Source: an uncultured Candidatus Saccharibacteria bacterium
GTDB taxonomy: Bacteria; Patescibacteriota; Saccharimonadia; Saccharimonadales; UBA4665
Direction of reading: 5' to 3'
DNA length: 64,000 bases
Assembly: GCA_964497565.1 (NCBI GenBank)
Contig: CAZCCP010000006.1
Coordinates: forward strand, 1,449 to 65,448
In this document: piece by piece, positions 47,999 to 59,226 of the stretch
Layout of the letters: every line of letters starts with the position of its first letter
How positions within the stretch are numbered: position 1 is the stretch's first letter
Program-made: the position numbers and the translations under genes
The notes under the pieces: model-generated
What the model was told of the DNA's origin: nothing
The model's input: only the letters and a program-made list of their open reading frames with translations
The model's database searches: none

Positions 47999-49468
47999 TT
48001 AGTGCATAGCGATAGGCGTTGGAGTGCTACCATCTTGGTTAGCGTACTTAGCCAAGTGGTGCTTGTGCTGCTTGACAACAGTCGTTGCAACAAAGGCAGC
48101 CAGAAGGGCAAAGGCAAAACCGACATAGAAGGCATTCGTCCAACCACCAACAGTTGCCGTAACAATCTCGTTGGCAGATGGCATGTGGCCAAGCTTGCTC
48201 AGAACGTCAGTGGTGTGTGATGCAGCAACTCCAGAGAGAACTGCAAGACCCAACGCGCCACCAATCTGCTGCGAAGTGTTAAACAGACCAGAAGCAAGAC
48301 CTGCTTCGTTGCCTGGAACACCTGAAGTAGCAGTAATTGTGGCTGTCACAAAGATTGCGCCCATACCAACAGCGACGAGCGACAAACCTGGGAGAATATT
48401 ACCCACGTAGGTACCGTCAACTGGAAGGTGACCGAGCCAGAACAAACCGCCAGCGACAAACAATGGGGCGACCATCAGAATGCGCTTATAACCAATCTTG
48501 GCGACCTGTCCCGACATAACTGTCGCGACAATACCAATGATAAAGGTTACTGGCAGGAGGCTCACACCAGTCATAACTGGCGAGTAGTCCATAACTGTCT
48601 GGATGTAGAGTGATACAAAGAAGAACATCGACATCATGGCAGCCGTAATTGGCATCATGACGAGGTTAGCACCAGTAAGGTTGCGGATGCGGAAAATTGA
48701 CAGTGGCATAAGCGGGTGCTTAACACGTGACTCGTTCCAGACAAATGCACCAAGTAATGCTATAACGGCTACGAACAAACTCAGTGTCGTACCGTTGGTC
48801 CAACCCCATTCAGGAGCCTTCGTAAGCGCAAACACCAAGGTCATAAGACCACCGGTTACCGTAATGGCGCCAGGAAGATCGAGGTCGTTGTGATCTGCTT
48901 CACTCTCGTGCAATGGAATAATGCGACGAGCGATAAGGATCACGAACAAACCAACAGGGATGTTTACAAAGAAGTTCCATTCCCAGCTTGTGTATTCAGT
49001 AAGAAGTCCGCCGAACACAACACCCGCTGCAGCACCACCGGCTGCAACTGCGCCCCAGATACCAAGGGCTTTGTTTCGGTCAGCGCCTTCCTTGAATGAC
49101 GTCAGAACAATAGACAATGCTGCTGGTGACATCAAGGCCGCGAACAAACCTTGTAGACCACGAGCTATAATCATCATTGTGCTGTCTTGTGACAAGCCGA
49201 CGAGTAGTGACATAGCAGTAAAACCGGCAACACCGATGATGAACATCTTGCGACGCCCGTAAAGGTCAGCTGCGCGACCACCGAGGAGCAAGAAACCGCC
49301 AAACGCAAGCGTATACGCAGTAATCACCCATTGCAGGTCACTGGCATTGAAGTCCAGCGCTTTTTGGATAGCCGGCAATGCAACGTTTACGATCGATGTA
49401 TCGAGAACGACCATAAACTGCGCAAGCGCAAGCAATCCAAGCAAACCCCATTTAAAAGGTTGCTTCAT
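47999..49468 (-). CDS. MFS drug:H+ antiporter, DHA2 type (14 TMS)
   Basis: LDTSIVNVALPAI and GGRAADLYGRRK motifs. 489 aa. Confidence 0.9.
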   Translation of the reverse strand: MKQPFKWGLLGLLALAQFMVVLDTSIVNVALPAIQKALDFNASDLQWVITAYTLAFGGFLLLGGRAADLYGRRKMFIIGVAGFTAMSLLVGLSQDSTMMIIARGLQGLFAALMSPAALSIVLTSFKEGADRNKALGIWGAVAAGGAAAGVVFGGLLTEYTSWEWNFFVNIPVGLFVILIARRIIPLHESEADHNDLDLPGAITVTGGLMTLVFALTKAPEWGWTNGTTLSLFVAVIALLGAFVWNESRVKHPLMPLSIFRIRNLTGANLVMMPITAAMMSMFFFVSLYIQTVMDYSPVMTGVSLLPVTFIIGIVATVMSGQVAKIGYKRILMVAPLFVAGGLFWLGHLPVDGTYVGNILPGLSLVAVGMGAIFVTATITATSGVPGNEAGLASGLFNTSQQIGGALGLAVLSGVAASHTTDVLSKLGHMPSANEIVTATVGGWTNAFYVGFAFALLAAFVATTVVKQHKHHLAKYANQDGSTPTPIAMH

Positions 49469-49490
49469 ATAAAATCCCTTTCAGTTATTA

Positions 49491-49505
49491 ATTGATTTCA
49501 TCAAT
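49491..49505. promoter_or_regulatory. Palindrome in the MFS/marR divergent region (candidate operator)
   Basis: ATTGAT-TTC-ATCAAT. Confidence 0.4.
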
Positions 49506-49529
49506 GATTGTAAATCTAAATATTTGAGG

Positions 49530-49559
49530 TTGTCAAGTATTTGCTACATGACGTATAAT
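49530..49559 (+). promoter_or_regulatory. Promoter predicting a near-leaderless marR transcript
   Basis: TTGTCA (49530-49535), 18 nt, TATAAT (49554-49559). The ATG at 49569 begins 10 nt after the end of the -10 element. Confidence 0.45.
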
Positions 49560-49568
49560 AACTATGTT

Positions 49569-50060
49569 ATGCAAGATAAGTACGAAGACCTCAACACGTT
49601 TTGGCTAACTTTCGAGCTCATGCTGCGGATGAAACCGCGATTTATTGAGTCGGCTGTTAAGCGCGGTCTTACGACGCAGCAATTGCACGTGCTTGGGTTT
49701 TTGAGTGATAACCGCCCTCACCCTATGAGCTGGATGGCTGCACTCTTGTCTTGCGATGCCTCCAACGTTACTGGTATCGTTGACCGATTGGTCGCCATGG
49801 ACCTCGTTGAGCGCGTCGAGAACGAAAAAGATCGTCGCGTTAAAATGATTCAGCTCACCAAACACGGAGAAAAGATGCGCGCCGAAGTTATGGCTGAGCT
49901 GACACACGACAGCCAGGAGCGTATCGATAGCATGCTTACACGTGAGGAACAAAAAGTCTTCCGTGACATTGTCATCAAGCTACTCAAAACGACCGAAGCA
50001 GAAGCGCTTGAGGCCTGCCCTGTCGCCAAGATCTACGAAAAAATCAAAAGCCGCTCCTAG
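49569..50060 (+). CDS. MarR-family transcriptional regulator
   Basis: LTTQQLHVLGFL...VTGIVDRLVAMDLVERVENEKDRRVKMIQLT. The track ORF starts at a TTG at 49524. I prefer 49569. Confidence 0.85.
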   Translation: MQDKYEDLNTFWLTFELMLRMKPRFIESAVKRGLTTQQLHVLGFLSDNRPHPMSWMAALLSCDASNVTGIVDRLVAMDLVERVENEKDRRVKMIQLTKHGEKMRAEVMAELTHDSQERIDSMLTREEQKVFRDIVIKLLKTTEAEALEACPVAKIYEKIKSRS

Positions 50061-50075
50061 ATAAGAGCGGCTTTT
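50046..50075. terminator. Bidirectional terminator
   Basis: AAAAGCCGCTC, loop CTAGATAA, GAGCGGCTTTT. It overlaps the marR stop codon. Confidence 0.7.
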
Positions 50076-50181
50076 CTGGTAGCAAAGTAGGTGGGCTCTT
50101 GAGTGTATGCGTAAAAATGCCAGTGGCATCACATACACCCGAGAGCCGGACGGCTACCTCCTTAATTGAGAGCGGTTTGGA

Positions 50182-51099
50182 CTATCGGCGAGGCCGACGT
50201 ATCGGGAAGCGCTGCGCGAGATGCAGATCGTTGTCGTGTGATCCGCCAGGTGTGCGGTGCGATTGGTCGAGAACGACCTTCAGCTCGCCGCTGAGCTGCG
50301 GGTGAATGCCGAGGGTGTACATGAAGTGCACCACATCGACCTCCAGTCCCTTGAGCAACTCCAGCGGATCCAGTTCGAAGAGCGTTGAGCTCTCGTAGGT
50401 TGCCGTGACCGCCTGAGCGCGTACAGAACGCACGTCCAGGAAGTACGCCAGCCCGCAGGTAGCCTCAAGGCTGGGAACAAAAGACCGCTGCTGCTTGGTG
50501 ATGCGGACGGTGACCGTCGCCGTACACATGCGTCCCAGCCTGCTGTCATACGGAATACGTACGATGGCATGGCCGGTAGCCTCGTAGATCGGCTTGATCG
50601 CGCTGGAAAGCACGAGGCGTGCTGCCTCCGAGTTGCAGAGCGTCAGACAGTTGTTCTCGATGCAGAGCTGCCAGTCGCCCGCCAGGCCCGGATCTTGCTG
50701 GATCCAGCCGTCGACCAGCTCATTGAGCCGTTGTACGGTGAACGCCTGCTCGGGCCGCAGTACCACGATGTCGTCGTTCATGCTGTTGGTGTCGATGAAG
50801 AGTACGTCTGGCACACTCTTGTCGAACTCCGCCTGAAGCACGCGCAGCGGGATCTCCAGGTTGTACAGAGCCTCCTGGTCAATCGGATGCTCGTCGTCAT
50901 TCGGAAGTACGAAACACAGCCCAGACCTTCGGTCCCAGCTGACGCTCGCGCTGCCCTCCACGATGAGCACCTGCAGTGCCTGCAGCGTTGCGTTGATGCT
51001 GGCTGCCGTAAACGGCACCTCAGCAGGAACGCCAAGGACCAGTCTGTGCTGATCCCGGTTCGGCTGCTCAAGCAGTCCCTCTCCCCTGACGGTTGCCAT
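50182..51099 (-). CDS. High-GC paralog P1 (305 aa), unknown family
   Basis: RBS GAGAGGA upstream. GC-rich third positions (CTG/GAG/ATC/GAC codons). Shares VPFTAASINATLQAL, GLCF and C-terminal LGIHP..ELKVVLD with P2-P4. Confidence 0.8.
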   Translation of the reverse strand: MATVRGEGLLEQPNRDQHRLVLGVPAEVPFTAASINATLQALQVLIVEGSASVSWDRRSGLCFVLPNDDEHPIDQEALYNLEIPLRVLQAEFDKSVPDVLFIDTNSMNDDIVVLRPEQAFTVQRLNELVDGWIQQDPGLAGDWQLCIENNCLTLCNSEAARLVLSSAIKPIYEATGHAIVRIPYDSRLGRMCTATVTVRITKQQRSFVPSLEATCGLAYFLDVRSVRAQAVTATYESSTLFELDPLELLKGLEVDVVHFMYTLGIHPQLSGELKVVLDQSHRTPGGSHDNDLHLAQRFPIRRPRR

Positions 51100-51150
51100 G
51101 GGAATGTCCTCTCAATTGGTCCACGATGTGGAACGGTAGCTGACAAATAT

Positions 51151-51179
51151 ATTATACAATCAAAAAATAATAATCACAA
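51151..51179 (-). promoter_or_regulatory. Promoter of P1
   Basis: On the minus strand: TTGTGA, 17 nt, TATAAT (as TGTATAAT). The surrounding 40 nt are about 15% GC by hand count. Confidence 0.55.
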
Positions 51180-51190
51180 AGGTGTGCTTC

Positions 51191-51247
51191 GGCTGGGTGG
51201 TGTTCGGTAAAGATGGTCGCTATGCAACCGATGAACACCACCCAACC
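51191..51247 (-). other. Long-stem, large-loop hairpin downstream of P2
   Basis: 15-nt arms, GGCTGGGTGGTGTTC and GAACACCACCCAACC on the plus strand, with one G-U position in the minus-strand RNA. 27-nt loop. Confidence 0.6.
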
Positions 51248-51257
51248 CTGGCAACTA

Positions 51258-52169
51258 CTACGACCTGGCGCTTACGGCTCCAGGGAGAAAACTCAACGCT
51301 CGCTGGCTGTCGATGTTGACTCGGAACTCTGTGACATCTGGGTGGTATCCCAGTGCCCGAGCGAAAGCCAGCGACTGCTGCCAGACGATGTTGTCAGTGA
51401 CCAAGTCGGTCATCAGCCCGGTGTACGTAGTGCCCTGAGGCAAACCGATGAGCCGGGCGCGGGCAACTCCTTCAGCAGTCTGTTCGACGCCAACGATGTT
51501 GGGCACGAGTCGTGCTGCATCGAGGTCGAATGACAGGTCGATCCGATAGCCGGGCGTGCCGGTGACCGTGATCCAGATGCGCTCGATGAAGCCCTGGTCG
51601 AGCTCACATGTCACGTCGAGTTTGCAGTGCTTGTAGCGGGGACTGAAGCTGTACCGGAAGTCGCTCATAGACGAGCTGTCGCCGTCTCGCAAGGCGAGGT
51701 AGGGACGTGACATGTCGAACGACAGGTACTTGCTGCTGTGGCCCAGCTGCTCGAAGAGCGACTTAAAGCTCGCTGTTGTCACCGGCTGATCTGGTTCAAG
51801 GATCGCCAAGCACTCATCTCTGCCATATGGCTCACGGGCCGTCAGGAACAGGATGTCCTGCGTTGCTTCCGGCTTGTCATCGACTGCGAAGTCGAAGTCA
51901 AAGGCCTTGAGCTGGCGTCGAACGTCCTGCTCCTCGCGGAAGTAGTGACTGATCCGGAAGTGCAGAGCTGTACCGCCCACAACCGCGAGCTCAGACTTGG
52001 TGAGCACGCTGTCGATAGACGAGTCGCCAGCAAGGTGCTGCCGCAGTCGTTGGAGATCCCGGTACAGTGTACGGGTCGTAAAGACCTCCCTGGGGTCGAT
52101 GTAGATGTAGAAGTGCGAGTGATCGTCGAAAGATGGCATCGACAATACGGGCCGGCGCTTTGGGCGCAT
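51258..52169 (-). CDS. High-GC paralog P2 (303 aa), unknown family
   Basis: The track ORF starts at a TTG (52217) inside the promoter. The ATG at 52169 (MRPKRRP) follows the RBS GAGGGAAG. C-terminal ALGYHPDVTEFRVNID. Confidence 0.8.
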   Translation of the reverse strand: MRPKRRPVLSMPSFDDHSHFYIYIDPREVFTTRTLYRDLQRLRQHLAGDSSIDSVLTKSELAVVGGTALHFRISHYFREEQDVRRQLKAFDFDFAVDDKPEATQDILFLTAREPYGRDECLAILEPDQPVTTASFKSLFEQLGHSSKYLSFDMSRPYLALRDGDSSSMSDFRYSFSPRYKHCKLDVTCELDQGFIERIWITVTGTPGYRIDLSFDLDAARLVPNIVGVEQTAEGVARARLIGLPQGTTYTGLMTDLVTDNIVWQQSLAFARALGYHPDVTEFRVNIDSQRALSFLPGAVSARS

Positions 52170-52205
52170 TCTCTTCCCTCTCGTCGTGTAGTTGACGTGG
52201 GATAT

Positions 52206-52234
52206 ATTATGCAACAAATAAATAATAATTACAA
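52206..52234 (-). promoter_or_regulatory. Promoter of P2
   Basis: On the minus strand: TTGTAA, 17 nt, CATAAT (as TGCATAAT). It is nearly identical to the P1 promoter block over about 45 nt. Confidence 0.55.
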
Positions 52235-52248
52235 AGGTGGTGCTGGCT

Positions 52249-52301
52249 CTTGGGGTACGTTATCTTTGCGATGGAAGTCCATCAGACAAACATACCCCAA
52301 G
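52249..52301 (-). other. Long-stem, large-loop hairpin downstream of P3
   Basis: CTTGGGGTA (52249-52257) pairs with TACCCCAAG (52293-52301). 35-nt loop. Confidence 0.5.
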
Positions 52302-52328
52302 GGCCGTGTCAGCAGCCGAGCACATTGC

Positions 52329-53189
52329 TCAGCTTCGATCGCTCATCGGCGGTGGCTTGTAGAGCAGCTCATGGCTGTCATCGATCCTGATACGGAACTC
52401 CAGGTCACGCGGGTGGTAGCCCAGAGCTTTGGCGAACTTGACCGTGAACTTCCACACCTTAGCGGCGTTGACGAAGTCGGCCATGAAGCCCGGATAGGTC
52501 AGGAGCCAGGGTTGGCCCGCCAGACGTGCGGTGACGGCACTATGCTCCTCCACGACGTCCGCAGCGAAGTTGAGCGCTTTTGCGGCGTCCAGGTTGTAGC
52601 CAATCTGGCCCTCAGCGGCCCGAGTACCCTCGACATGCATGATGATGCGGTCGATGTAGTGGTTGCGGACAGTTGCCACGGCGTAGACGCGAGCCTGCTT
52701 GTAGCGAGGCTTGAGCACCCGGACTGCGTTCTCACCCAGGCGGTCGTGCCAGACCTGACAGACCCAGAGGTACGGCGCATCCGCCTTGATGTACCAGTCC
52801 TCGCCTTGGTCGTTGAGGCCAGCCAGGTAGGTGTTGATCGTCGTTACGCTCAGCGGCTGCTCGGGGTCGATTGCACCGCCACACTGGCCGGCAACGAAGA
52901 GAATCTCCGGAACTTCCGGCACGGCGTCCACTGCATACGTGAACTTGTATGCCATCAGTCGCTCGCGAAGCTCGTCGAGCTCGTCCGGGTTGCCGCCGAA
53001 GCGGAAACACAGACCCTTGTCGGAGCTGGTCTTCAATGCAACCCTGTTGAACTCGAACTCAGCGCGAAGCTTCTCCAGCTGAGCGATCACGCTATTCGGC
53101 GTGAACACCTCGTCCCGGTGCATGTGTACGAGCACCTCTCGGTGGCTGGTACTCACTTCGACAGCAGGCTGTCGGCTTTCAAAGTGCAT
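52329..53189 (-). CDS. High-GC paralog P3 (286 aa), unknown family
   Basis: RBS GGGAGAGG upstream. GC-rich third positions across the whole ORF, checked codon by codon. Contains GLCFRFGGNPDEL and ALGYHPRDLEFRIRID. Confidence 0.8.
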   Translation of the reverse strand: MHFESRQPAVEVSTSHREVLVHMHRDEVFTPNSVIAQLEKLRAEFEFNRVALKTSSDKGLCFRFGGNPDELDELRERLMAYKFTYAVDAVPEVPEILFVAGQCGGAIDPEQPLSVTTINTYLAGLNDQGEDWYIKADAPYLWVCQVWHDRLGENAVRVLKPRYKQARVYAVATVRNHYIDRIIMHVEGTRAAEGQIGYNLDAAKALNFAADVVEEHSAVTARLAGQPWLLTYPGFMADFVNAAKVWKFTVKFAKALGYHPRDLEFRIRIDDSHELLYKPPPMSDRS

Positions 53190-53234
53190 GAACCTCTCCC
53201 TACTCGTTCGTGCGAAGTATAGCTGACAAGACTA

Positions 53235-53263
53235 ATAATATAATGTTCTTCATACATTGGCAA
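53235..53263 (-). promoter_or_regulatory. Promoter of P3
   Basis: On the minus strand: TTGCCA, 17 nt, TATTAT, followed by the TTGTCAGCTA 5'UTR element shared with P1. Confidence 0.45.
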
Positions 53264-53324
53264 CGTAGCTACTCTATCGAAATGACACGAGTATCATCTT
53301 TAAGAACAGCTAGGTTGTGTGTTC

Positions 53325-53380
53325 GGGTCTCCTGGGGTTGTATGTTGATACCATACTGGCATCGCAACCCCGGGAGACCC
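53325..53380 (-). other. Long-stem, large-loop hairpin downstream of P4
   Basis: GGGTCTCCTGGGGTTG (53325-53340) pairs with CAACCCCGGGAGACCC (53365-53380), 15 of 16 positions. 24-nt loop. Confidence 0.6.
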
Positions 53381-53406
53381 TCGCAACTACATGTCATTCA
53401 CCTCTT

Positions 53407-54372
53407 TCAGGCGCGGTCGGACAGGATGTCGAAGTGGTGACTCAGTTCGATGGTCTGGAGGGCGCTGCCGTAATCCAGCGTGATGCTGTACTTCGGCATG
53501 CCGACCACCGGGAAGATGTTCAGGGCCTTGGCCAGTTCGACGCTGAGGGCGTGGACTGCGAAGATGAACTTCCTCGGATCACCGAAGGTGAACAGCTCCG
53601 AACCGGCGGTTTCGACGTGAACCTGGTTGAACTGGTCAACCTCGACGTTTACGACGCCAGCGACGAGCTTCACGCGGCTGAGGTCGAACTCGTGCGGCTC
53701 GATCGGCGAAATGACGCGGATCATGTGGTGGACGGAGGCCAGTTGGTCTTCCTCGTTGTACCCGCAGGAGGCCGTGATGATGCCACAGTACGGGTACTTC
53801 GCGACCACACGGAGTGCCATGGCGCTGTAGTCGATGGCGGTGTCGCGCAGGTCCTCCTGGTCGTCCTCGTCCAGATCGTCGTCGTAGCCGCAGTCCTCGT
53901 CGTCGAGATGCTCCAGCAGGAACGCTCCCCAGCCGACTGATGCCGTCCAGTCTTCCCGCCGTTTAGCGAGCTTTCCGGTGAAGCGGTCGATCAAGTCGAT
54001 GAACATGGCACCGGTGAGCACCTGTAGCGGCTCGATAACGAGCTGCGGGTACTTACTGGTGCAGTCCAGTGACAGGACTTCGAGAGCTTCGCTCGTGACT
54101 TTGCCATCAGCCCTGAGGGACGTCTTGATGTTGGCGGCTCGCTCGAGAACTTCTGGCGACGTTTCGTAGCCGAACCGTACGATCAGCCCGTTGTTCTCAC
54201 CCGAATAACGGATGGACACGTCGTCCAGTTCCTCGTCGGTGAGCTCTTCGATTGTGGCGGTGACGCTGGCGGCCGTAAACGGCATGTCCAGCGGCATCAG
54301 GAATGCCGGGCAGCTTTCGTCGGTGACAAGCTTGCCGCCGAGATCTGCGATTGAGTACACTTCTTCTCCCAT
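53407..54372 (-). CDS. High-GC paralog P4 (321 aa), unknown family, with an acidic insert
   Basis: MPFTAASVTATIEEL, GLIVRF and C-terminal AKALNIFP are homologous to P1-P3. Asp/Glu-rich insert DDEDCGYDDDLDEDDQED. Confidence 0.8.
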   Translation of the reverse strand: MGEEVYSIADLGGKLVTDESCPAFLMPLDMPFTAASVTATIEELTDEELDDVSIRYSGENNGLIVRFGYETSPEVLERAANIKTSLRADGKVTSEALEVLSLDCTSKYPQLVIEPLQVLTGAMFIDLIDRFTGKLAKRREDWTASVGWGAFLLEHLDDEDCGYDDDLDEDDQEDLRDTAIDYSAMALRVVAKYPYCGIITASCGYNEEDQLASVHHMIRVISPIEPHEFDLSRVKLVAGVVNVEVDQFNQVHVETAGSELFTFGDPRKFIFAVHALSVELAKALNIFPVVGMPKYSITLDYGSALQTIELSHHFDILSDRA

Positions 54373-54409
54373 CGTCGTCCACTGAGGTGAAATGGTAGTT
54401 GACGTGCAT

Positions 54410-54438
54410 ATTATACAATATTCTACTGCAATTAAAAA
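54410..54438 (-). promoter_or_regulatory. Promoter of P4 (clear -10, weak -35)
   Basis: On the minus strand: TGTATAAT, followed by ATGCACGTCAACTAC, which is shared with the P2 5'UTR. Confidence 0.35.
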
Positions 54439-54481: not shown

Positions 54482-55135
54482 ATGACTACTGAACCAGAGA
54501 TTTCCCAAACCACAAAAACAGCATCCCGGCTTACGAGTAAGTTAGCGTTTCTGCTCTACGGCTTACTGCTAGGCGTTGTTGTTATTCTGGGCATCCGCTT
54601 CTTTACCTACAATCCGGCACATACGCACTACCACGCCAACTTCCAGGTTTACATCAATGGCAAACGCGAACTGTTCAAAGACTCAACCTATTACGAAGAC
54701 GTGGCCGCCTGCTCTGCCTACGACAACATTACGCCAGCCGAGCGCGCACATATGCATGATGAAGTTAACGACGTCATACACGTCCACGACCACGCCGTCA
54801 CATGGGGTCAGTTCTTCGAAAATATCGGCTGGTTTGTTGGTGATGATTTCGTAAAAACCAAAGATGGCACGCTGTACGTAGCCAACGGCAACGAAAAACT
54901 ACACATTATGTTAAACGGCCAAGATTACACAGACCTGACGCCTATCACCGATATGACTATTGGTGACCAGGACAAGCTACTCATAAGTTTTGGCGACCTT
55001 TCCGATTCGACTATCAAAACTGAGTACAACGGCATCAAAAATAATGCCAAGAAGAGCGATGAGACCAAAGATCCCGCCTCGTGTAGTGGCGATATCAAGC
55101 CTTCGACGACCGACCGCTTGAAGCATTTATTCTAG
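54482..55135 (+). CDS. Hypothetical single-TM protein with a His-rich extracytoplasmic domain
   Basis: ATG at 54482 (MTTEPEIS). TM LAFLLYGLLLGVVVILGI. HTHYHANF and HMHDEVNDVIHVHDH suggest metal binding. Confidence 0.7.
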   Translation: MTTEPEISQTTKTASRLTSKLAFLLYGLLLGVVVILGIRFFTYNPAHTHYHANFQVYINGKRELFKDSTYYEDVAACSAYDNITPAERAHMHDEVNDVIHVHDHAVTWGQFFENIGWFVGDDFVKTKDGTLYVANGNEKLHIMLNGQDYTDLTPITDMTIGDQDKLLISFGDLSDSTIKTEYNGIKNNAKKSDETKDPASCSGDIKPSTTDRLKHLF

Positions 55136-55585
55136 GTTAGGATCTCTCTTTTCTGTCTCTCGGACAGCTATCGTGCATGCTGCTGCCACCGCCAAAGATC
55201 CAGCTGCACCGTACGCAAAATCATAAACATCGCCCGTAGTGTCTTCCGCAAATATAGCCGAGAACTGTGGTTCGTGTGCCAAGGAAGTTTCGCTGACCAT
55301 GTTCATGCCCAACCCAACGCCCATCACCATTCCGCCAACAGCTACAGCTTTGCGGAGCGGTAGGTTGCGTGGTGACTTTGCGACATCAATAGCGAGCGAT
55401 GCCGCACTCGTAACTATGAGGCTATCGAAAAAATTATTGGCGTGAGCTACTACATCAAGTGGGCCTCCATCAGATATCCAGCCTTTGCTGCGTGCGTATT
55501 CAACACCGACAACGTTACCCAAAAAACCAATGACTGCAGCGGGCAGTGCGAAGCGAACCACCCTTAGTTTCTCTTTTATGCTCAT
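55127..55585 (-). CDS. Hypothetical membrane protein
   Basis: ORF track, 152 aa. Gly/Ala-rich TM segments. Convergent with the previous gene, overlapping it by 9 nt. Confidence 0.6.
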   Translation of the reverse strand: MSIKEKLRVVRFALPAAVIGFLGNVVGVEYARSKGWISDGGPLDVVAHANNFFDSLIVTSAASLAIDVAKSPRNLPLRKAVAVGGMVMGVGLGMNMVSETSLAHEPQFSAIFAEDTTGDVYDFAYGAAGSLAVAAACTIAVRETEKRDPNLE

Positions 55586-55657
55586 GCCCCACTTATAGCA
55601 GCTTGGCTTGACGCTCGCAAATTGTTACCATGAGGGCATTACTTTAAGGGGGATCTC

Positions 55658-55918
55658 ATGGAAAAATCGTTGCGACCAATTGTAGACCACATTAAAGAAA
55701 AAGCTCCCGCCTATGCGCTTGCCGTCGTTGTCGGTGTTGGCTCCCTAGCCCTTATGGGCGAAGGTGATGGCCAAAACCCAGGCAAAGTGACTCATGGCGA
55801 CACTCCCGCTGTAGGCATACCGGTCCCGACCCCTGAGCCAATTGCGCCTCAAGAAATGAGCTTTGGCGAGTTTCGTGACCAGCAAATGCAACAACACGAA
55901 CTACTAGAGGATCGTTAG
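55658..55918 (+). CDS. Small hypothetical single-TM protein
   Basis: RBS AAGGGGGA. TM YALAVVVGVGSLALM. 86 aa. Confidence 0.6.
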   Translation: MEKSLRPIVDHIKEKAPAYALAVVVGVGSLALMGEGDGQNPGKVTHGDTPAVGIPVPTPEPIAPQEMSFGEFRDQQMQQHELLEDR

Positions 55919-55943
55919 CTCAACCTGTGCTAACATAAGAGGT

Positions 55944-56711
55944 ATGCGACCAATCTGGACAGGATCAATTAGTTTCGGGCTCGTAAACATCCCCGTTAAG
56001 ATGTTTAGCGGCGTTCACCCACATGAAGGCCTCGATCTGGATATGCTCCACAAAGAAGACCACGCACCAATCCGTTATGCGCGCATTTGCCGCAAAGATG
56101 GCAAAGAAATTGCATGGGACGACATCGTTAAGGGCTACGAGTACCAGGACGGCGACTATGCCGTGCTTACCGAGGCCGATTTTGACAAAGCAAACCCCAA
56201 GAAAACCCAAACTGTTGATATCCACCAGTTTGTCGATGACAGCGAAATCGACATTCGCTACCTCGAAAAGCCCTATTATCTCGAACCTATTAAGGGTGGC
56301 GAGAAAGCCTACGCACTCTTACGTGCTGCGCTCCAGAAGTCCAACAAGCTAGCACTCGCTCGCTTTGTCATTCACCAGAAGGAACACCTGGGCGTCATTA
56401 AGCCTGTTGGTCGGGCATTAGTGCTCAACCAAATGCGCTTTCCGACTGACCTTCGTGAGCCTACTTCATTAAAATTCCCGACCGATAGTGACCTTACCGA
56501 AAAAGAAATTGAAGTCGCCATGAAGCTCATCAAGCAAGAGACAAAGCACTTTATCCCTGAAGATTTCCATGATACCTATACCGAGGAACTTGAGGAAATT
56601 ATCAAGGCAAAGACTAAGGGCAAAAAACCAGCCCATCACGATAAGGCACCCAAAGACACACCAGCCAGCGACCTCATGGAAGCGCTAAAGGCTAGTCTAA
56701 ACCAGTCATAA
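55944..56711 (+). CDS. ku: Ku protein (non-homologous end joining)
   Basis: MRPIWTGSISFGLVNIPVKMF is the canonical bacterial Ku N-terminus. Basic C-terminal tail. Confidence 0.92.
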   Translation: MRPIWTGSISFGLVNIPVKMFSGVHPHEGLDLDMLHKEDHAPIRYARICRKDGKEIAWDDIVKGYEYQDGDYAVLTEADFDKANPKKTQTVDIHQFVDDSEIDIRYLEKPYYLEPIKGGEKAYALLRAALQKSNKLALARFVIHQKEHLGVIKPVGRALVLNQMRFPTDLREPTSLKFPTDSDLTEKEIEVAMKLIKQETKHFIPEDFHDTYTEELEEIIKAKTKGKKPAHHDKAPKDTPASDLMEALKASLNQS

Positions 56712-56715
56712 CGCT

Positions 56716-59226
56716 ATGGGACTTGGCAAGTATTTCTCGAAACGACGCTTCGATAAAACGCCTGAACCAAAAGGTTCCGTTCGTAACCAGCACGGTAAAC
56801 AACTCGCCTTCGTAATTCAGGAACATCATGCCTCCAGTTTGCATTATGATTTTCGGCTTGAACTCGATGGCGTACTCAAGAGCTGGGCCGTTCCTAAAGG
56901 CCCGAGTATGGACCCACATGTACGACATCTGGCCGTGCCTGTCGAAGATCACCCATACGAATATCGGAAGTTCGAGGGTGTTATTCCCGAGGGCCAGTAC
57001 GGAGCCGGGAATGTTATTATCTGGGACCAAGGTACATACGAGCCACGGGCCGAAACAGACAACCCCGAAGCGACGTTGCGCAAGGAGCTTGAGGCCGGGC
57101 ATCTGACGTTTATACTGCATGGCACAAAGCTCCATGGAGAATTCGCACTGATAAAAATGCATGGTCAAGACGAAGACGCATGGCTGCTTGTCAAAAAAAC
57201 CGACGACTACGCTTCGGGCAAAGACATCACGCAAGAAACAGCGTCTGTTGTTAGTGGCAAAGCGGTCGATGATCTTGGTGCCCACAATAAGCTGCCAGAC
57301 CTCTCGAGTTACCCCAAAGAGAAGCAGCCCTGGCACGTAAGACCTATGCTCTGCACACTCGTCGAAGAACCGTTCGACCGCGATAACTGGCTGTTTGAAA
57401 TCAAGTGGGACGGCTACCGAGCAATCGCGAGCAAACACGGCGCTGCGCGCACGCTCTACTCGCGCAATAGTCTCGACTTTAGCGAAAAATTTGCACCAGT
57501 TTACGAAGCACTCAACGGCCTCGATCACGATGTCATCCTCGATGGCGAAGTTGTTGTTGTCGATCAAGAAGGTTCACCGCACTTTGAGTGGCTCCAGAGT
57601 TGGCGCAAAGCACCGCAAGGCTCACTCCACTACTATGTCTTTGATATTTTGTGGTGCGATGGACGCGACGTGCGCACAATGCCGCTCGTTAAGCGCAAGG
57701 CATTGCTCAAGGCTGTATTGCCCCAAAACTCACTACTTCGTTACAGCGATCATATTGAGACCAAAGGCGCAGCACTCTTTCATCAGATGCAAGAACGAGG
57801 GCTTGAAGGGATTGTCGCCAAACGGGCCGACAGCGAATATCGCGAGGCAAATCGTGGTGACGATTGGCTCAAGATCAAAACGCACCTGCGGCAAGAAGTC
57901 GTTATCGGTGGCTTTACCGAACCGCGAGGTAGTCGCGACTATTTGGGCGCCCTCATTGTGGGTGTCTACGACAAGGGCGAGCTTCGGTATGTTGGCCACT
58001 CAGGTGGTGGTATTCCCGACAATCAGCGCAAGCTGCTCCGTGCCAAGCTCGACAAACTGGAGCGCAAAACTTCGCCGTTCTCAACCGAGCCAAAACCCAA
58101 CGCGCCTGTTCACTGGGTGAGGCCAGAGCTGGTGTGCGAAATGAACTTTGCTGAATGGACAAGCGACGGCTCGATGCGCCAACCGAAGTTCGTCGGTATG
58201 CGTGAAGACAAGAAGCCCGTTAACGTGAAGCGAGAGAGATCACGCGCGACCCCTTTGGATAAAAGTGGGTCAAGCGTAGTGCAGCCGGGCTCGCCAAAAG
58301 ACGATCCGCGCGAAACGCACACTTTTAAGCAAAGGGAGAAGAAAGTGATTGAGCAAGAGTTTACACATCTGGACAAGGTGTTCTTCCCGAAACACAAGTA
58401 CACAAAAGGTGACCTGATCCACTACTACGAAAGCGTGGGCGACTTTATGCTTCCGTATCTCAAAGATCGCCCTCACTCGCTCTTGCGGCAGCCAGGTGGC
58501 GTTACCGACCATGGATTCTTCCAGAAGAATATGGAGCATTTGCCAGATTGGGTCCCAGCAACTGATATTTATTCTGAGTCAAATAACGGCAATCTCCACT
58601 GGATTGTCGGTGGCTCAATCGAAACGCTTACCTACATGGTGCAACTTGGCTGTATTGAGATAAATCCGTGGAATTCGCGCATCCAGAACCTCGACAAACC
58701 AGATTGGCTCGTTATCGATCTGGACCCTGAGGGTGTAACGTTCGAGGACGTCATTACTGTAGCCAAAGCCACCCATGAAGTCTGTGACGAACTGCACATT
58801 GACGCCTTCCCTAAGACCTCTGGCAAAACTGGTATTCACGTCTATATTCCGCTCCATGCAAACTACAACTATGAACAAGCCAAAAATCTGGCACACTTAC
58901 TCGCAATTGAGATTAATAAGCGGGTTCCAAAGCTCACGAGTTTAGAGCGCATGCCCGTGAAGCGGCAACATCGTATTTACCTTGATTATTTACAAAACCG
59001 CGAAGGCCAGACACTCGCCGCACCATATTCAGTCCGCCCGACACCAGATGCAAATGTCGCCACCCCGCTCCACTGGGACGAAGTAAAGAAAGGCTTGAAG
59101 CCAGAGAATTTCACCATCGCAAACATCCATAAACGACTGGCACGCACGGGTGATCTCTGGAAACCAGTTTTGGGCAAGGGTGTCGATATTGGTCGCATTA
59201 TCGAGGAGCTCGAGAAGCGCGCCTAG
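56716..59226 (+). CDS. ligD: Multidomain ATP-dependent DNA ligase LigD (phosphoesterase, ligase, polymerase/primase)
   Basis: N-terminal PE domain (FVIQEHHASSLHYDFRLE), ligase motif I (EIKWDGYR) and C-terminal Pol domain (...KTSGKTGIHVYIPL). 836 aa, immediately downstream of ku. Confidence 0.92.
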   Translation: MGLGKYFSKRRFDKTPEPKGSVRNQHGKQLAFVIQEHHASSLHYDFRLELDGVLKSWAVPKGPSMDPHVRHLAVPVEDHPYEYRKFEGVIPEGQYGAGNVIIWDQGTYEPRAETDNPEATLRKELEAGHLTFILHGTKLHGEFALIKMHGQDEDAWLLVKKTDDYASGKDITQETASVVSGKAVDDLGAHNKLPDLSSYPKEKQPWHVRPMLCTLVEEPFDRDNWLFEIKWDGYRAIASKHGAARTLYSRNSLDFSEKFAPVYEALNGLDHDVILDGEVVVVDQEGSPHFEWLQSWRKAPQGSLHYYVFDILWCDGRDVRTMPLVKRKALLKAVLPQNSLLRYSDHIETKGAALFHQMQERGLEGIVAKRADSEYREANRGDDWLKIKTHLRQEVVIGGFTEPRGSRDYLGALIVGVYDKGELRYVGHSGGGIPDNQRKLLRAKLDKLERKTSPFSTEPKPNAPVHWVRPELVCEMNFAEWTSDGSMRQPKFVGMREDKKPVNVKRERSRATPLDKSGSSVVQPGSPKDDPRETHTFKQREKKVIEQEFTHLDKVFFPKHKYTKGDLIHYYESVGDFMLPYLKDRPHSLLRQPGGVTDHGFFQKNMEHLPDWVPATDIYSESNNGNLHWIVGGSIETLTYMVQLGCIEINPWNSRIQNLDKPDWLVIDLDPEGVTFEDVITVAKATHEVCDELHIDAFPKTSGKTGIHVYIPLHANYNYEQAKNLAHLLAIEINKRVPKLTSLERMPVKRQHRIYLDYLQNREGQTLAAPYSVRPTPDANVATPLHWDEVKKGLKPENFTIANIHKRLARTGDLWKPVLGKGVDIGRIIEELEKRA

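Follow-up and report, generated by a model that had tools for sequence, protein, structure and literature searches.

A tandem array of orphan genes

We analysed a 64,000-nucleotide (nt) stretch of DNA from an uncultured Candidatus Saccharibacteria bacterium (hereafter the window), in which four tandem minus-strand genes, P1–P4 (50182–54372), encode divergent paralogs with pairwise protein identities of 18–27%. The open reading frame (ORF) list places P1, a member of an orphan family, at 50182–51099 (305 amino acids (aa)), P2 at 51258–52169 (303 aa, starting MRPKRRP as in database protein P0002), P3 at 52329–53189 (286 aa) and P4 at 53407–54372 (321 aa); P1, P3 and P4 also match the family profile. 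An initial annotation of this DNA had noticed that every paralog is bracketed by short complementary sequences, one in the 5′ untranslated region (UTR) and one directly after the stop codon, and all of its strings and coordinates proved exact when re-read from the sequence. Comparison with homologous loci now suggests that a conserved long-range helix that joins the 5′ UTR to the 3′ UTR probably closes each mRNA of this family.

Common layout and complementary ends

The genes share a common order on the transcribed strand: a promoter-like site, a 5′ motif GTCARCTAC(C), a leader, the ORF, the stop codon, a 3′ motif and a long hairpin. The −10 box precedes the 5′ motif by 6–9 nt. At the other end, the 3′ motif reads (G)GTAGYTG, or GCTGACA in P3, and the long hairpin starts 0–9 nt further on. 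All 3′ partners lie between the stop codon and the long hairpin, that of P2 overlapping the stop, in short 3′ UTRs with 10–55 nt before the hairpin. Promoter scanning placed minus-strand sites at 51151–51179 for P1 (TTGTGA-17-TATAAT), 52206–52234 for P2 (TTGTAA-17-CATAAT) and 53235–53263 for P3 (TTGCCA-17-TATTAT), and an extended −10 box, TTGTATAAT, was read from the sequence upstream of P4 (54410–54418, minus strand).

In P1, the 5′ motif GTCAGCTACC (51135–51144, minus strand, as are all motifs and arms below unless stated) lies at the predicted transcription start (+1), 6 nt after the −10 box at 51151–51156, and its GCUACC pairs with the 3′ motif GGTAGCCGTC (50149–50158), 1 nt before the hairpin. 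On the plus strand this is GCTACC (50153–50158) facing GGTAGC (51135–51140), with a further complement between AATTGAGAG (50164–50172) and CTCTCAATT (51109–51117). P2 has the 5′ motif GTCAACTAC (52188–52196) and the 3′ motif GTAGTTGCC (51250–51258), that is, CAACTAC (51252–51258) against GTAGTTG (52188–52194) on the plus strand; an additional ACGAC/GUCG extends this helix into the last codons, to 12 base pairs (bp) with one bulge. The P3 motifs are TGTCAGCTAT (53219–53228) and GCTGCTGACA (52307–52316), the GCUGACA of the latter pairing with UGUCAGC (plus-strand TGTCAGC, 52307–52313, against GCTGACA, 53222–53228). P4 carries GTCAACTACC (54394–54403), 6 nt after the −10 box at 54410–54415, and GTAGTTGCG (53382–53390); the plus-strand complements are CAACTAC (53384–53390) with GTAGTTG (54395–54401) and TTCACCTC (53397–53404) with GAGGTGAA (54384–54391).

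The 5′ motif does not act as a signal across the genome: the window contains 25 matches to GTCARCTAC where 24 are expected, and three of the four exact matches are at the array. Directly after it, P1 (51118–51134) and P4 (54372–54393) have a small leader hairpin, (U)CCAC-N3-4-GUGG(A), which recurs in L001, L003, L005, L006, L007, L008, L011 and L019 (related loci, introduced below) and shows compensatory variants in genes L1c (GCCGC/GCGGA) and L8a (CGUGA/UCACG). The 3′ UTRs of some genes also hold an element that is a near-perfect likeness of a Shine-Dalgarno (SD) sequence, AAGGAGG or GGAG, found in the window at 50159–50163 together with the 3′ motif (AAGGAGGTAGCC) and at 53397–53406, and again in L001, L003, L005, L007 and L011. 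In the P1 clade this element immediately precedes the 3′ motif, in the P4 clade it comes right behind the stop codon, and no plausible ORF was found downstream of it.

Covariation between the two ends

Related loci (L001–L019) were gathered by looking up thirteen family members and by searching with the neighbouring MarR, and 22 genes from 12 loci had both ends available. We numbered 5′ positions 0–13, position 0 being the base that precedes the G of GUCA, and anchored the 3′ segment on its conserved GTAG/CTG core. Across this set, GUCARCUACC at the predicted +1 pairs with GGUAGYUG before the long hairpin. Over an 11-bp register, 76.9% of cells are paired compared with 69.6% for column shuffles, none of which (0 of 500) attains the observed level, both sides have changed in 8 of the 11 pairs, and the covariation score is 0.290 against 0.171 (0/500). 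For the core 7 bp, CARCUAC with GUAGYUG, the figures are 90.9% of cells paired, double changes in five of seven pairs and a covariation score of 0.362 against 0.185. Slid registers give pairing of just 10–63%.

Motif position 5 and its partner are A:U in the P2 and P4 clades and G:C in the P1 and P3 clades. Gene L16a, with arms GUCAAUCACC (5′) and GGUGAUUGGC (3′), has two double changes and a U:G, and in L13a (GUCUGCUAC with GUAGCA) an A:U pair has become U:A. Between P3 and L1b, the 5′ arms UGUCAGC and UGUCAGUA and the 3′ arms GCUGACA and UACUGGCA differ by a change from C:G to U:A, an added A:U pair and a U:G. L15a and L18b combine a G-type 5′ motif with a U-type 3′ motif and pair through G:U.

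Each end also fits its own partner best: when cognate 5′/3′ ends were compared with non-cognate pairings within the family, none of 20,000 permutations reached the observed sum, whether of score or of duplex energy. For 19 of 20 genes, the minimum-energy structure that RNAcofold returned for the leader and the 3′ region contains the terminal helix, adjoining the hairpin; the extreme 5′ terminus is paired in these predictions, with 0–3 nucleotides left unpaired. Five loci (L008, L013, L015, L016 and L018) hold a single family gene, so pairing within the same gene is the sole option there; these keep both motifs and show the strongest compensations of the set. The initial annotation had argued from identical placement in four genes. 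The shared layout is real, but since flanks are inherited when genes duplicate it makes a weaker argument than was claimed, and it is covariation rather than repetition that carries the case.

Chance level in the window

Short complements are common around ordinary genes. For the 51 other ORFs of the window, we took the longest exact complement between the 60 nt upstream and the 45 nt downstream: eight (16%) reach at least 7 nt, three at least 8 nt and none at least 9 nt, whereas P1, P2, P3 and P4 have 9, 7, 7 and 8 nt. The lone 7-nt pairs are thus near chance level, as had been supposed. A broad RNAduplex test of the same 60-nt and 45-nt stretches against dinucleotide shuffles was not significant (z of −0.2 to −1.8; −0.2 to −1.4 for P1–P4); because such stretches are too wide and include GC-rich hairpin arms, we replaced it with a focused one, which folded the first 14 nt, counted from the predicted +1, with the region between stop and hairpin and used shuffled 3′ regions as control. 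This gave p = 0.10, 0.006, 0.025 and 0.038 for P1–P4 (Fisher 3.5e-4, for genes that are not phylogenetically independent) and p < 0.05 in 16 of the 22 family genes. The decisive support comes from the homologous loci and not from the window alone.

A second, inner helix

Many family genes have an additional, inner complement between the leader and the sequence after the stop. In P1, the 5′ arm AAUUGAGAG (51109–51117) overlaps the ribosome-binding region GAGAGGAC, and the 3′ arm CUCUCAAUU (50164–50172), 10 nt after the stop, is pyrimidine-rich and resembles an anti-SD sequence. The P1 orthologue L3c has the same arms with one G:U; the arms are UUUGAGAG and CUCUCGAA in L1c, likewise an orthologue of P1, UCAGA..GGAC and GUCC..UCUGA in L5b, GAGGCGAG and UUCGCCUC in L8a, and GAGAGGCG and CGUUUCUC in L15a. 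In all six genes the second helix would cover the ribosome-binding region.

P4 has the opposite arrangement, with a 5′ arm UUCACCUC (54384–54391) and an SD-like 3′ arm GAGGUGAA (53397–53404). The P4 and P3 clades lack pairing of the SD region or show it with the opposite polarity, and P4 orthologues reduce the second helix to CUCC, UUCC or CAUCUCC against GGAG(GUG). The suggestion of translational control through SD and anti-SD pairing is supported only in part: it agrees with the helix over the ribosome-binding region in the P1 clade, L8a and L15a, but not with the P4-specific pair, which shrinks to CUCC/GGAG in orthologues.

Long compound hairpins

Every family gene is followed by a compound hairpin of 37–98 nt (mostly 50–73) and −18 to −40 kcal/mol, in which a long outer stem and an inner stem of 5–7 bp are joined by an internal loop that is A/U-rich and lies 3′. 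In the window these hairpins lie on the minus strand at 50094–50147 after P1 (a 16-bp outer stem, an inner stem, an asymmetric A/U-rich internal loop and no U tract), 51191–51247 after P2, 52245–52305 after P3 and 53325–53380 after P4. The structure after P3 is kept in its clade, where RNAalifold, run on the P3 clade alone, finds 9 of 22 pairs maintained through double changes.

We considered and rejected intrinsic terminators as an identity for these hairpins. They have neither a U tract nor a short loop, their tails read CACCTAC..., AGCACC... or GAACAC..., and a terminator scan called none of them; the other hairpins of the window are short-looped and flanked by A and U tracts. Behind the long hairpin, most arrays have a canonical terminator at their last gene, as do some single-copy genes (L16a, L18b) and the internal gene L6a, and there is none between the internal genes of the window. 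The long hairpins are unlike the ordinary terminators that follow them in last genes, and we therefore treat them as a separate conserved element.

Many genes have a conserved C-rich tail after the hairpin, (GC)ACCACCTAC or CACCTTTGT, found in the window at 50076–50093, 51170–51190 and 52228–52244 and in L003, L005, L008, L011 and L014, even in last genes without a downstream promoter. In the P3 clade the stop codon (UGAGC...) opens a further small hairpin, GAGC-loop-GCUC, whose loop varies in sequence; it lies in the region of 52317–52331 in the window and in the P3-type 3′ ends of L001, L003, L006, L011 and L014. No Rfam family matched above its gathering threshold. The best hit, rnk_pseudo (the Pseudomonas rnk leader; 33.7 bits against a threshold of 55, E = 0.005), spans the P1 hairpin and the shared MarR terminator (50038–50148, minus strand) and is most likely due to chance. 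Elsewhere in the window, at 2569–2623, an odd hairpin sets a run of ~13 G against a run of ~10 C (GGTGGGCGCGGGGGGGGGGGG ... CCCCCCCCCCGCCGCACCACC).

Protein family and genomic setting

The P1–P4 proteins have no match in Pfam, NCBIfam, PHROGs or PADLOC, and library searches returned no transposase family for them. A profile search of 1.84 billion representative proteins puts the family at ~25–30 members, and a word-indexed protein search found three. The AlphaFold2 model of P1, built on a 27-sequence alignment, has a mean predicted local distance difference test score of 93.8 and a predicted template modelling (TM) score of 0.88, and Foldseek found no match for it in PDB or BFVD (best TM ≤0.22). 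The family seems to represent an orphan fold that is confined to Saccharibacteria.

G+C content is ~60% across P1–P4 and ~50% in the flanks. At third codon positions (GC3) it is 0.74–0.81 in P1–P4 (50182–54372) compared with 0.45–0.60 in neighbouring genes (47999–50060 and 54482–59226), and L018 shows the same contrast. Because the bias persists across paralogs that are only ~20% identical, it looks maintained rather than a trace of recent transfer.

On one side, the array is flanked by a convergent MarR gene and a transporter gene of the major facilitator superfamily (MFS), and on the other by a small membrane-protein gene, Ku and LigD; these names are Pfam labels taken from syntenic loci. 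Searching with a MarR alignment recovered two Saccharibacteria genomes and one metagenome contig, whereas a single MarR protein as query found no related loci. The two contigs from named genomes both belong to Candidatus Saccharibacteria metagenome-assembled genomes. Wherever contigs are long enough to show neighbours, one to four family genes lie beside the convergent MarR gene, with L018 as the one exception, and longer contigs have the small membrane-protein gene next to Ku/LigD on the other flank. The orientation of the family genes relative to MarR and Ku is constant in every locus with visible neighbours. No recombinase, integrase or transposase was found in any syntenic locus, and none of the loci found had the same flanks with zero family genes.

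L018 carries a lone family gene (1133–2014) away from the usual Ku/MarR site; its neighbours are an unrelated gene of 313 aa and a gene that we take, from its translation alone, to be uvrA-like and that the family gene precedes. It keeps the 5′ motif, the 3′ motif and the compound hairpin, followed by a canonical terminator, and no MarR gene was called on this 4-kb contig. L001 lacks the P2-type gene (L001 9885–10003 compared with L003 1340–1451 and 2385–2502): its P1-type leader is joined, right at the 5′ motif, to the promoter that in L003 precedes the P2-type gene L3b. The window's own P2 and P1 promoters are nearly identical (87% over 38 nt). This pattern suggests recombination or gene conversion between intergenic modules.

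Probable closure of the mRNA

Self-closure of each mRNA by 5′–3′ pairing and termini of mobile cassettes had both been proposed in the initial annotation, and we favour the former. It is the probable explanation in view of the compensatory double changes among 22 genes at 12 loci, the cognate fit and the cofolding of 19 of 20 genes. With the transcript start and end as we infer them, pairing as RNA in vivo would join the first ~10 nt, GUCARCUACC, to GGUAGYUG(N)C of the same transcript, and the terminal helix would possibly stack on the long hairpin. The closed form would probably shield the 5′ terminus from 5′-end-dependent ribonucleases (RNases), and would do so only in complete transcripts, because only those carry the 3′ partner. 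In some members, the P1 clade among them, the second helix over the ribosome-binding site would probably also lower translation initiation. A GC3-rich body and a strong 3′ hairpin would fit the design of a stable RNA.

Several points weigh against closure. The +1 position derives from −10 boxes only, the helices are short (cores of 6–7 bp in the window; about −10.6 to −12.7 kcal/mol for the duplex of the 5′ 14-mer) and they must close a loop of ~900 nt. There is no wobble asymmetry: the register has 15 G:U and 17 A:C cells, and the internal cells, counted by hand, have a non-significant 11 and 5. G:U counts therefore do not prove strand-specific pairing of RNA, and we dropped this argument. 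Two genes fit poorly, L8a with an A:C in the core and only five contiguous pairs, and L5c with two mismatches. The 3′ register was our own choice (the GTAG/CTG anchor), which tilts the counts towards structure, and the shuffle controls overstate significance because the sequences are related; we estimate roughly 5–6 independent compensatory events. Finally, in arrays, matching an upstream gene's 3′ motif to the next gene's 5′ motif gives 80 of 110 paired cells, against 85 of 110 within the same gene (G:U allowed).

Alternative explanations

An unlikely alternative is that the two motifs are independent conserved signals that are complementary by accident, for example, at +1, an initial-transcribed element or an operator and, ahead of the hairpin, a separate element that binds protein or is related to termination, or inverted operator copies for a looping repressor. 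The 5′ motif does sit between the −10 box and +10, where repressor operators often lie, a MarR-family regulator is adjacent in all loci with visible neighbours but L018, the G-type motif is close to a perfect palindrome, GGTAGCTACC, and there is no G:U excess. A shared protein site would, however, hold one consensus, whereas the two ends co-change in a complementary way, and L16a and L13a leave the consensus on both sides. Moreover, the divergent MarR/MFS promoter region of the 64-kb window has no match to the motif with up to one mismatch, and the L018 gene retains both motifs on a contig where no MarR was called.

We consider it decidedly unlikely that the pairing is intergenic, between the 3′ motif of one gene and the 5′ motif of the next in a read-through RNA, as a processing or stability element between cistrons. 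Such a stem-loop would enclose the hairpin and the AU-rich promoter stretch. Read-through is plausible because no canonical terminator separates the internal window genes. The adjacent-gene count given above is close to the same-gene count, the core is perfect for the P4 3′ motif with the P3 5′ motif and for the P2 3′ motif with the P1 5′ motif, and a span of 110–190 nt is entropically easier than 900 nt. But this arrangement leaves unexplained the 5′ motifs of first genes, the 3′ motifs of last genes and both motifs of single-copy genes, where the compensations are clearest. It also sets A-type 5′ motifs against G-type 3′ motifs, giving A:C mismatches (P2 5′ with P3 3′, L1c with L1b and L3b with L3a, each 4/7). 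A reading of the motifs as an intergenic element of the miniature inverted-repeat transposable element (MITE) or Correia type is viable within arrays but fails for the same first, last and single-copy genes.

That the repeats act in DNA, marking a recombination unit such as a cassette, an invertible segment or an insertion sequence (IS)-like element, seems very unlikely. Copy number varies from one to four at one site, L018 has the gene with its motifs and hairpin in a different context, and the junction left by loss of the P2 unit in L001 falls right at the motif. Recombination between two directly repeated 5′ motifs, or between the similar intergenic regions, nevertheless accounts for that deletion, without any need for the inverted pair. 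The repeats are only 6–10 bp and often imperfect, the rest of the window shows no enrichment of the motif, every gene is served by a promoter of its own that lies outside them, the hairpins lack the RYYYAAC/GTTRRRY boxes of attC, the family sits beside MarR in almost all loci, the syntenic loci contain no recombinase, integrase or transposase, and the uniform orientation gives no sign of inversion. The cassette-terminus proposal of the initial annotation is accordingly set aside.

Specific mobile elements were also examined and rejected. Target-site duplication does not apply, since the copies are inverted (direct identity of CAACTAC and GTAGTTG is 2/7). Integron cassettes resemble the array in having tandem single-gene units, each with an imperfect long hairpin, in variable copy number, but P1–P4 have their own promoter-like sites, no R or L boxes (the outer stems read GGCTC..., GGGTT..., GGCCC... 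and GGGTC...) and no integrase in syntenic loci, and the paralogs occupy a fixed chromosomal site. An IS or MITE is at odds with repeats of this length, with the absence of motif enrichment in the window and of a transposase match, and with a position next to MarR in almost all loci; a phase-variable invertible segment is at odds with the single orientation in all loci with visible neighbours and with the lack of a recombinase.

The remaining possibility, an accidental ancestral complement copied by duplication and without function, is already disfavoured by the present data and is the least likely of all: a 7-mer complement does occur in 16% of ordinary window genes, the broad duplex energies are not significant and paralogs inherit flanks, but a neutral UTR would have been erased between paralogs whose proteins are just 18–27% identical, and the motifs instead persist in 22 genes with compensatory change and with cognate ends ahead of non-cognate ones in 20,000 of 20,000 permutations.

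Significance and comparison with known systems

What is new here is a predicted example, shared by a whole family and backed by its evolution, of a feature that is known in bacterial mRNAs but rare. Experimentally proven pairing of bacterial 5′ UTRs with 3′ UTRs is limited to a few individual genes, icaR and hbs among them, and to our knowledge evolutionary covariation is rarely available for a long-range helix of this kind. A family from the little-studied and largely uncultivated Saccharibacteria would offer a natural test set for the relation of mRNA closure to decay and translation, although its practical value is modest until transcript ends and the effect on expression have been measured. 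We regard as doubtful the further idea that terminal helix, compound hairpin with conserved tail and GC3-rich body form a portable 'closed mRNA' module that travels with the orphan-fold family. If true, it would imply exceptionally long-lived or specially handled RNAs, beyond a simple stabiliser like that of hbs, for instance transcripts that an epibiont with few RNases, a minimal set, would protect, store or process as units.

Pairing of the 5′ end blocks 5′-end-dependent decay in known bacterial mRNAs, and the ompA, ermC and aprE leaders are 5′-terminal stem-loops that stabilise their messages. The P1–P4 family resembles these leaders in that its very 5′ end is predicted to be paired, and differs in that the partner lies ~900 nt away in the 3′ UTR and not in a local hairpin.

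In Staphylococcus aureus icaR, a UCCCC motif in the 3′ UTR pairs with the SD region (Ruiz de los Mozos et al. 2013, PMC3868564), and anti-SD-like sequences hundreds of nucleotides distant pair with ribosome-binding sites in vivo (PMC12697547). The likeness lies in the second helix: a pyrimidine-rich 3′ UTR stretch complements the ribosome-binding region in the P1 clade, L8a and L15a (CUCUCAAUU, UUCGCCUC and CGUUUCUC), and such SD pairing would block initiation and create a double-stranded RNase target. The family-wide helix, in contrast, is 5′-terminal and does not involve the SD, the P3 clade has no SD masking, and the 10–55 nt of 3′ UTR before the family hairpins compare with several hundred nucleotides in icaR.

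The comparison with hbs of Bacillus subtilis concerns the terminal helix. There, a 14-bp interaction whose 3′ arm lies just upstream of the terminator restrains RNases Y and J1 (Braun, Durand & Condon 2017, PMC5737220). In both cases, for the family by prediction, the leader of a short monocistronic mRNA pairs with a sequence of the same mRNA just upstream of the 3′ stem-loop, protection of the leader from RNases is proposed, and the 5′ UTR is structured, with small hairpins beside the pairing site. The hbs duplex is perfect and lies inside the leader, downstream of hairpin 2, whereas that of the P1–P4 family would run for 6–10 bp from the predicted first nucleotide, often accompanied by a second helix, and has a compound hairpin as its 3′ stem-loop instead of a U-tract terminator. 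The family, known here from sequence alone, sets beside the single case of hbs a whole group of genes in which the two ends covary.

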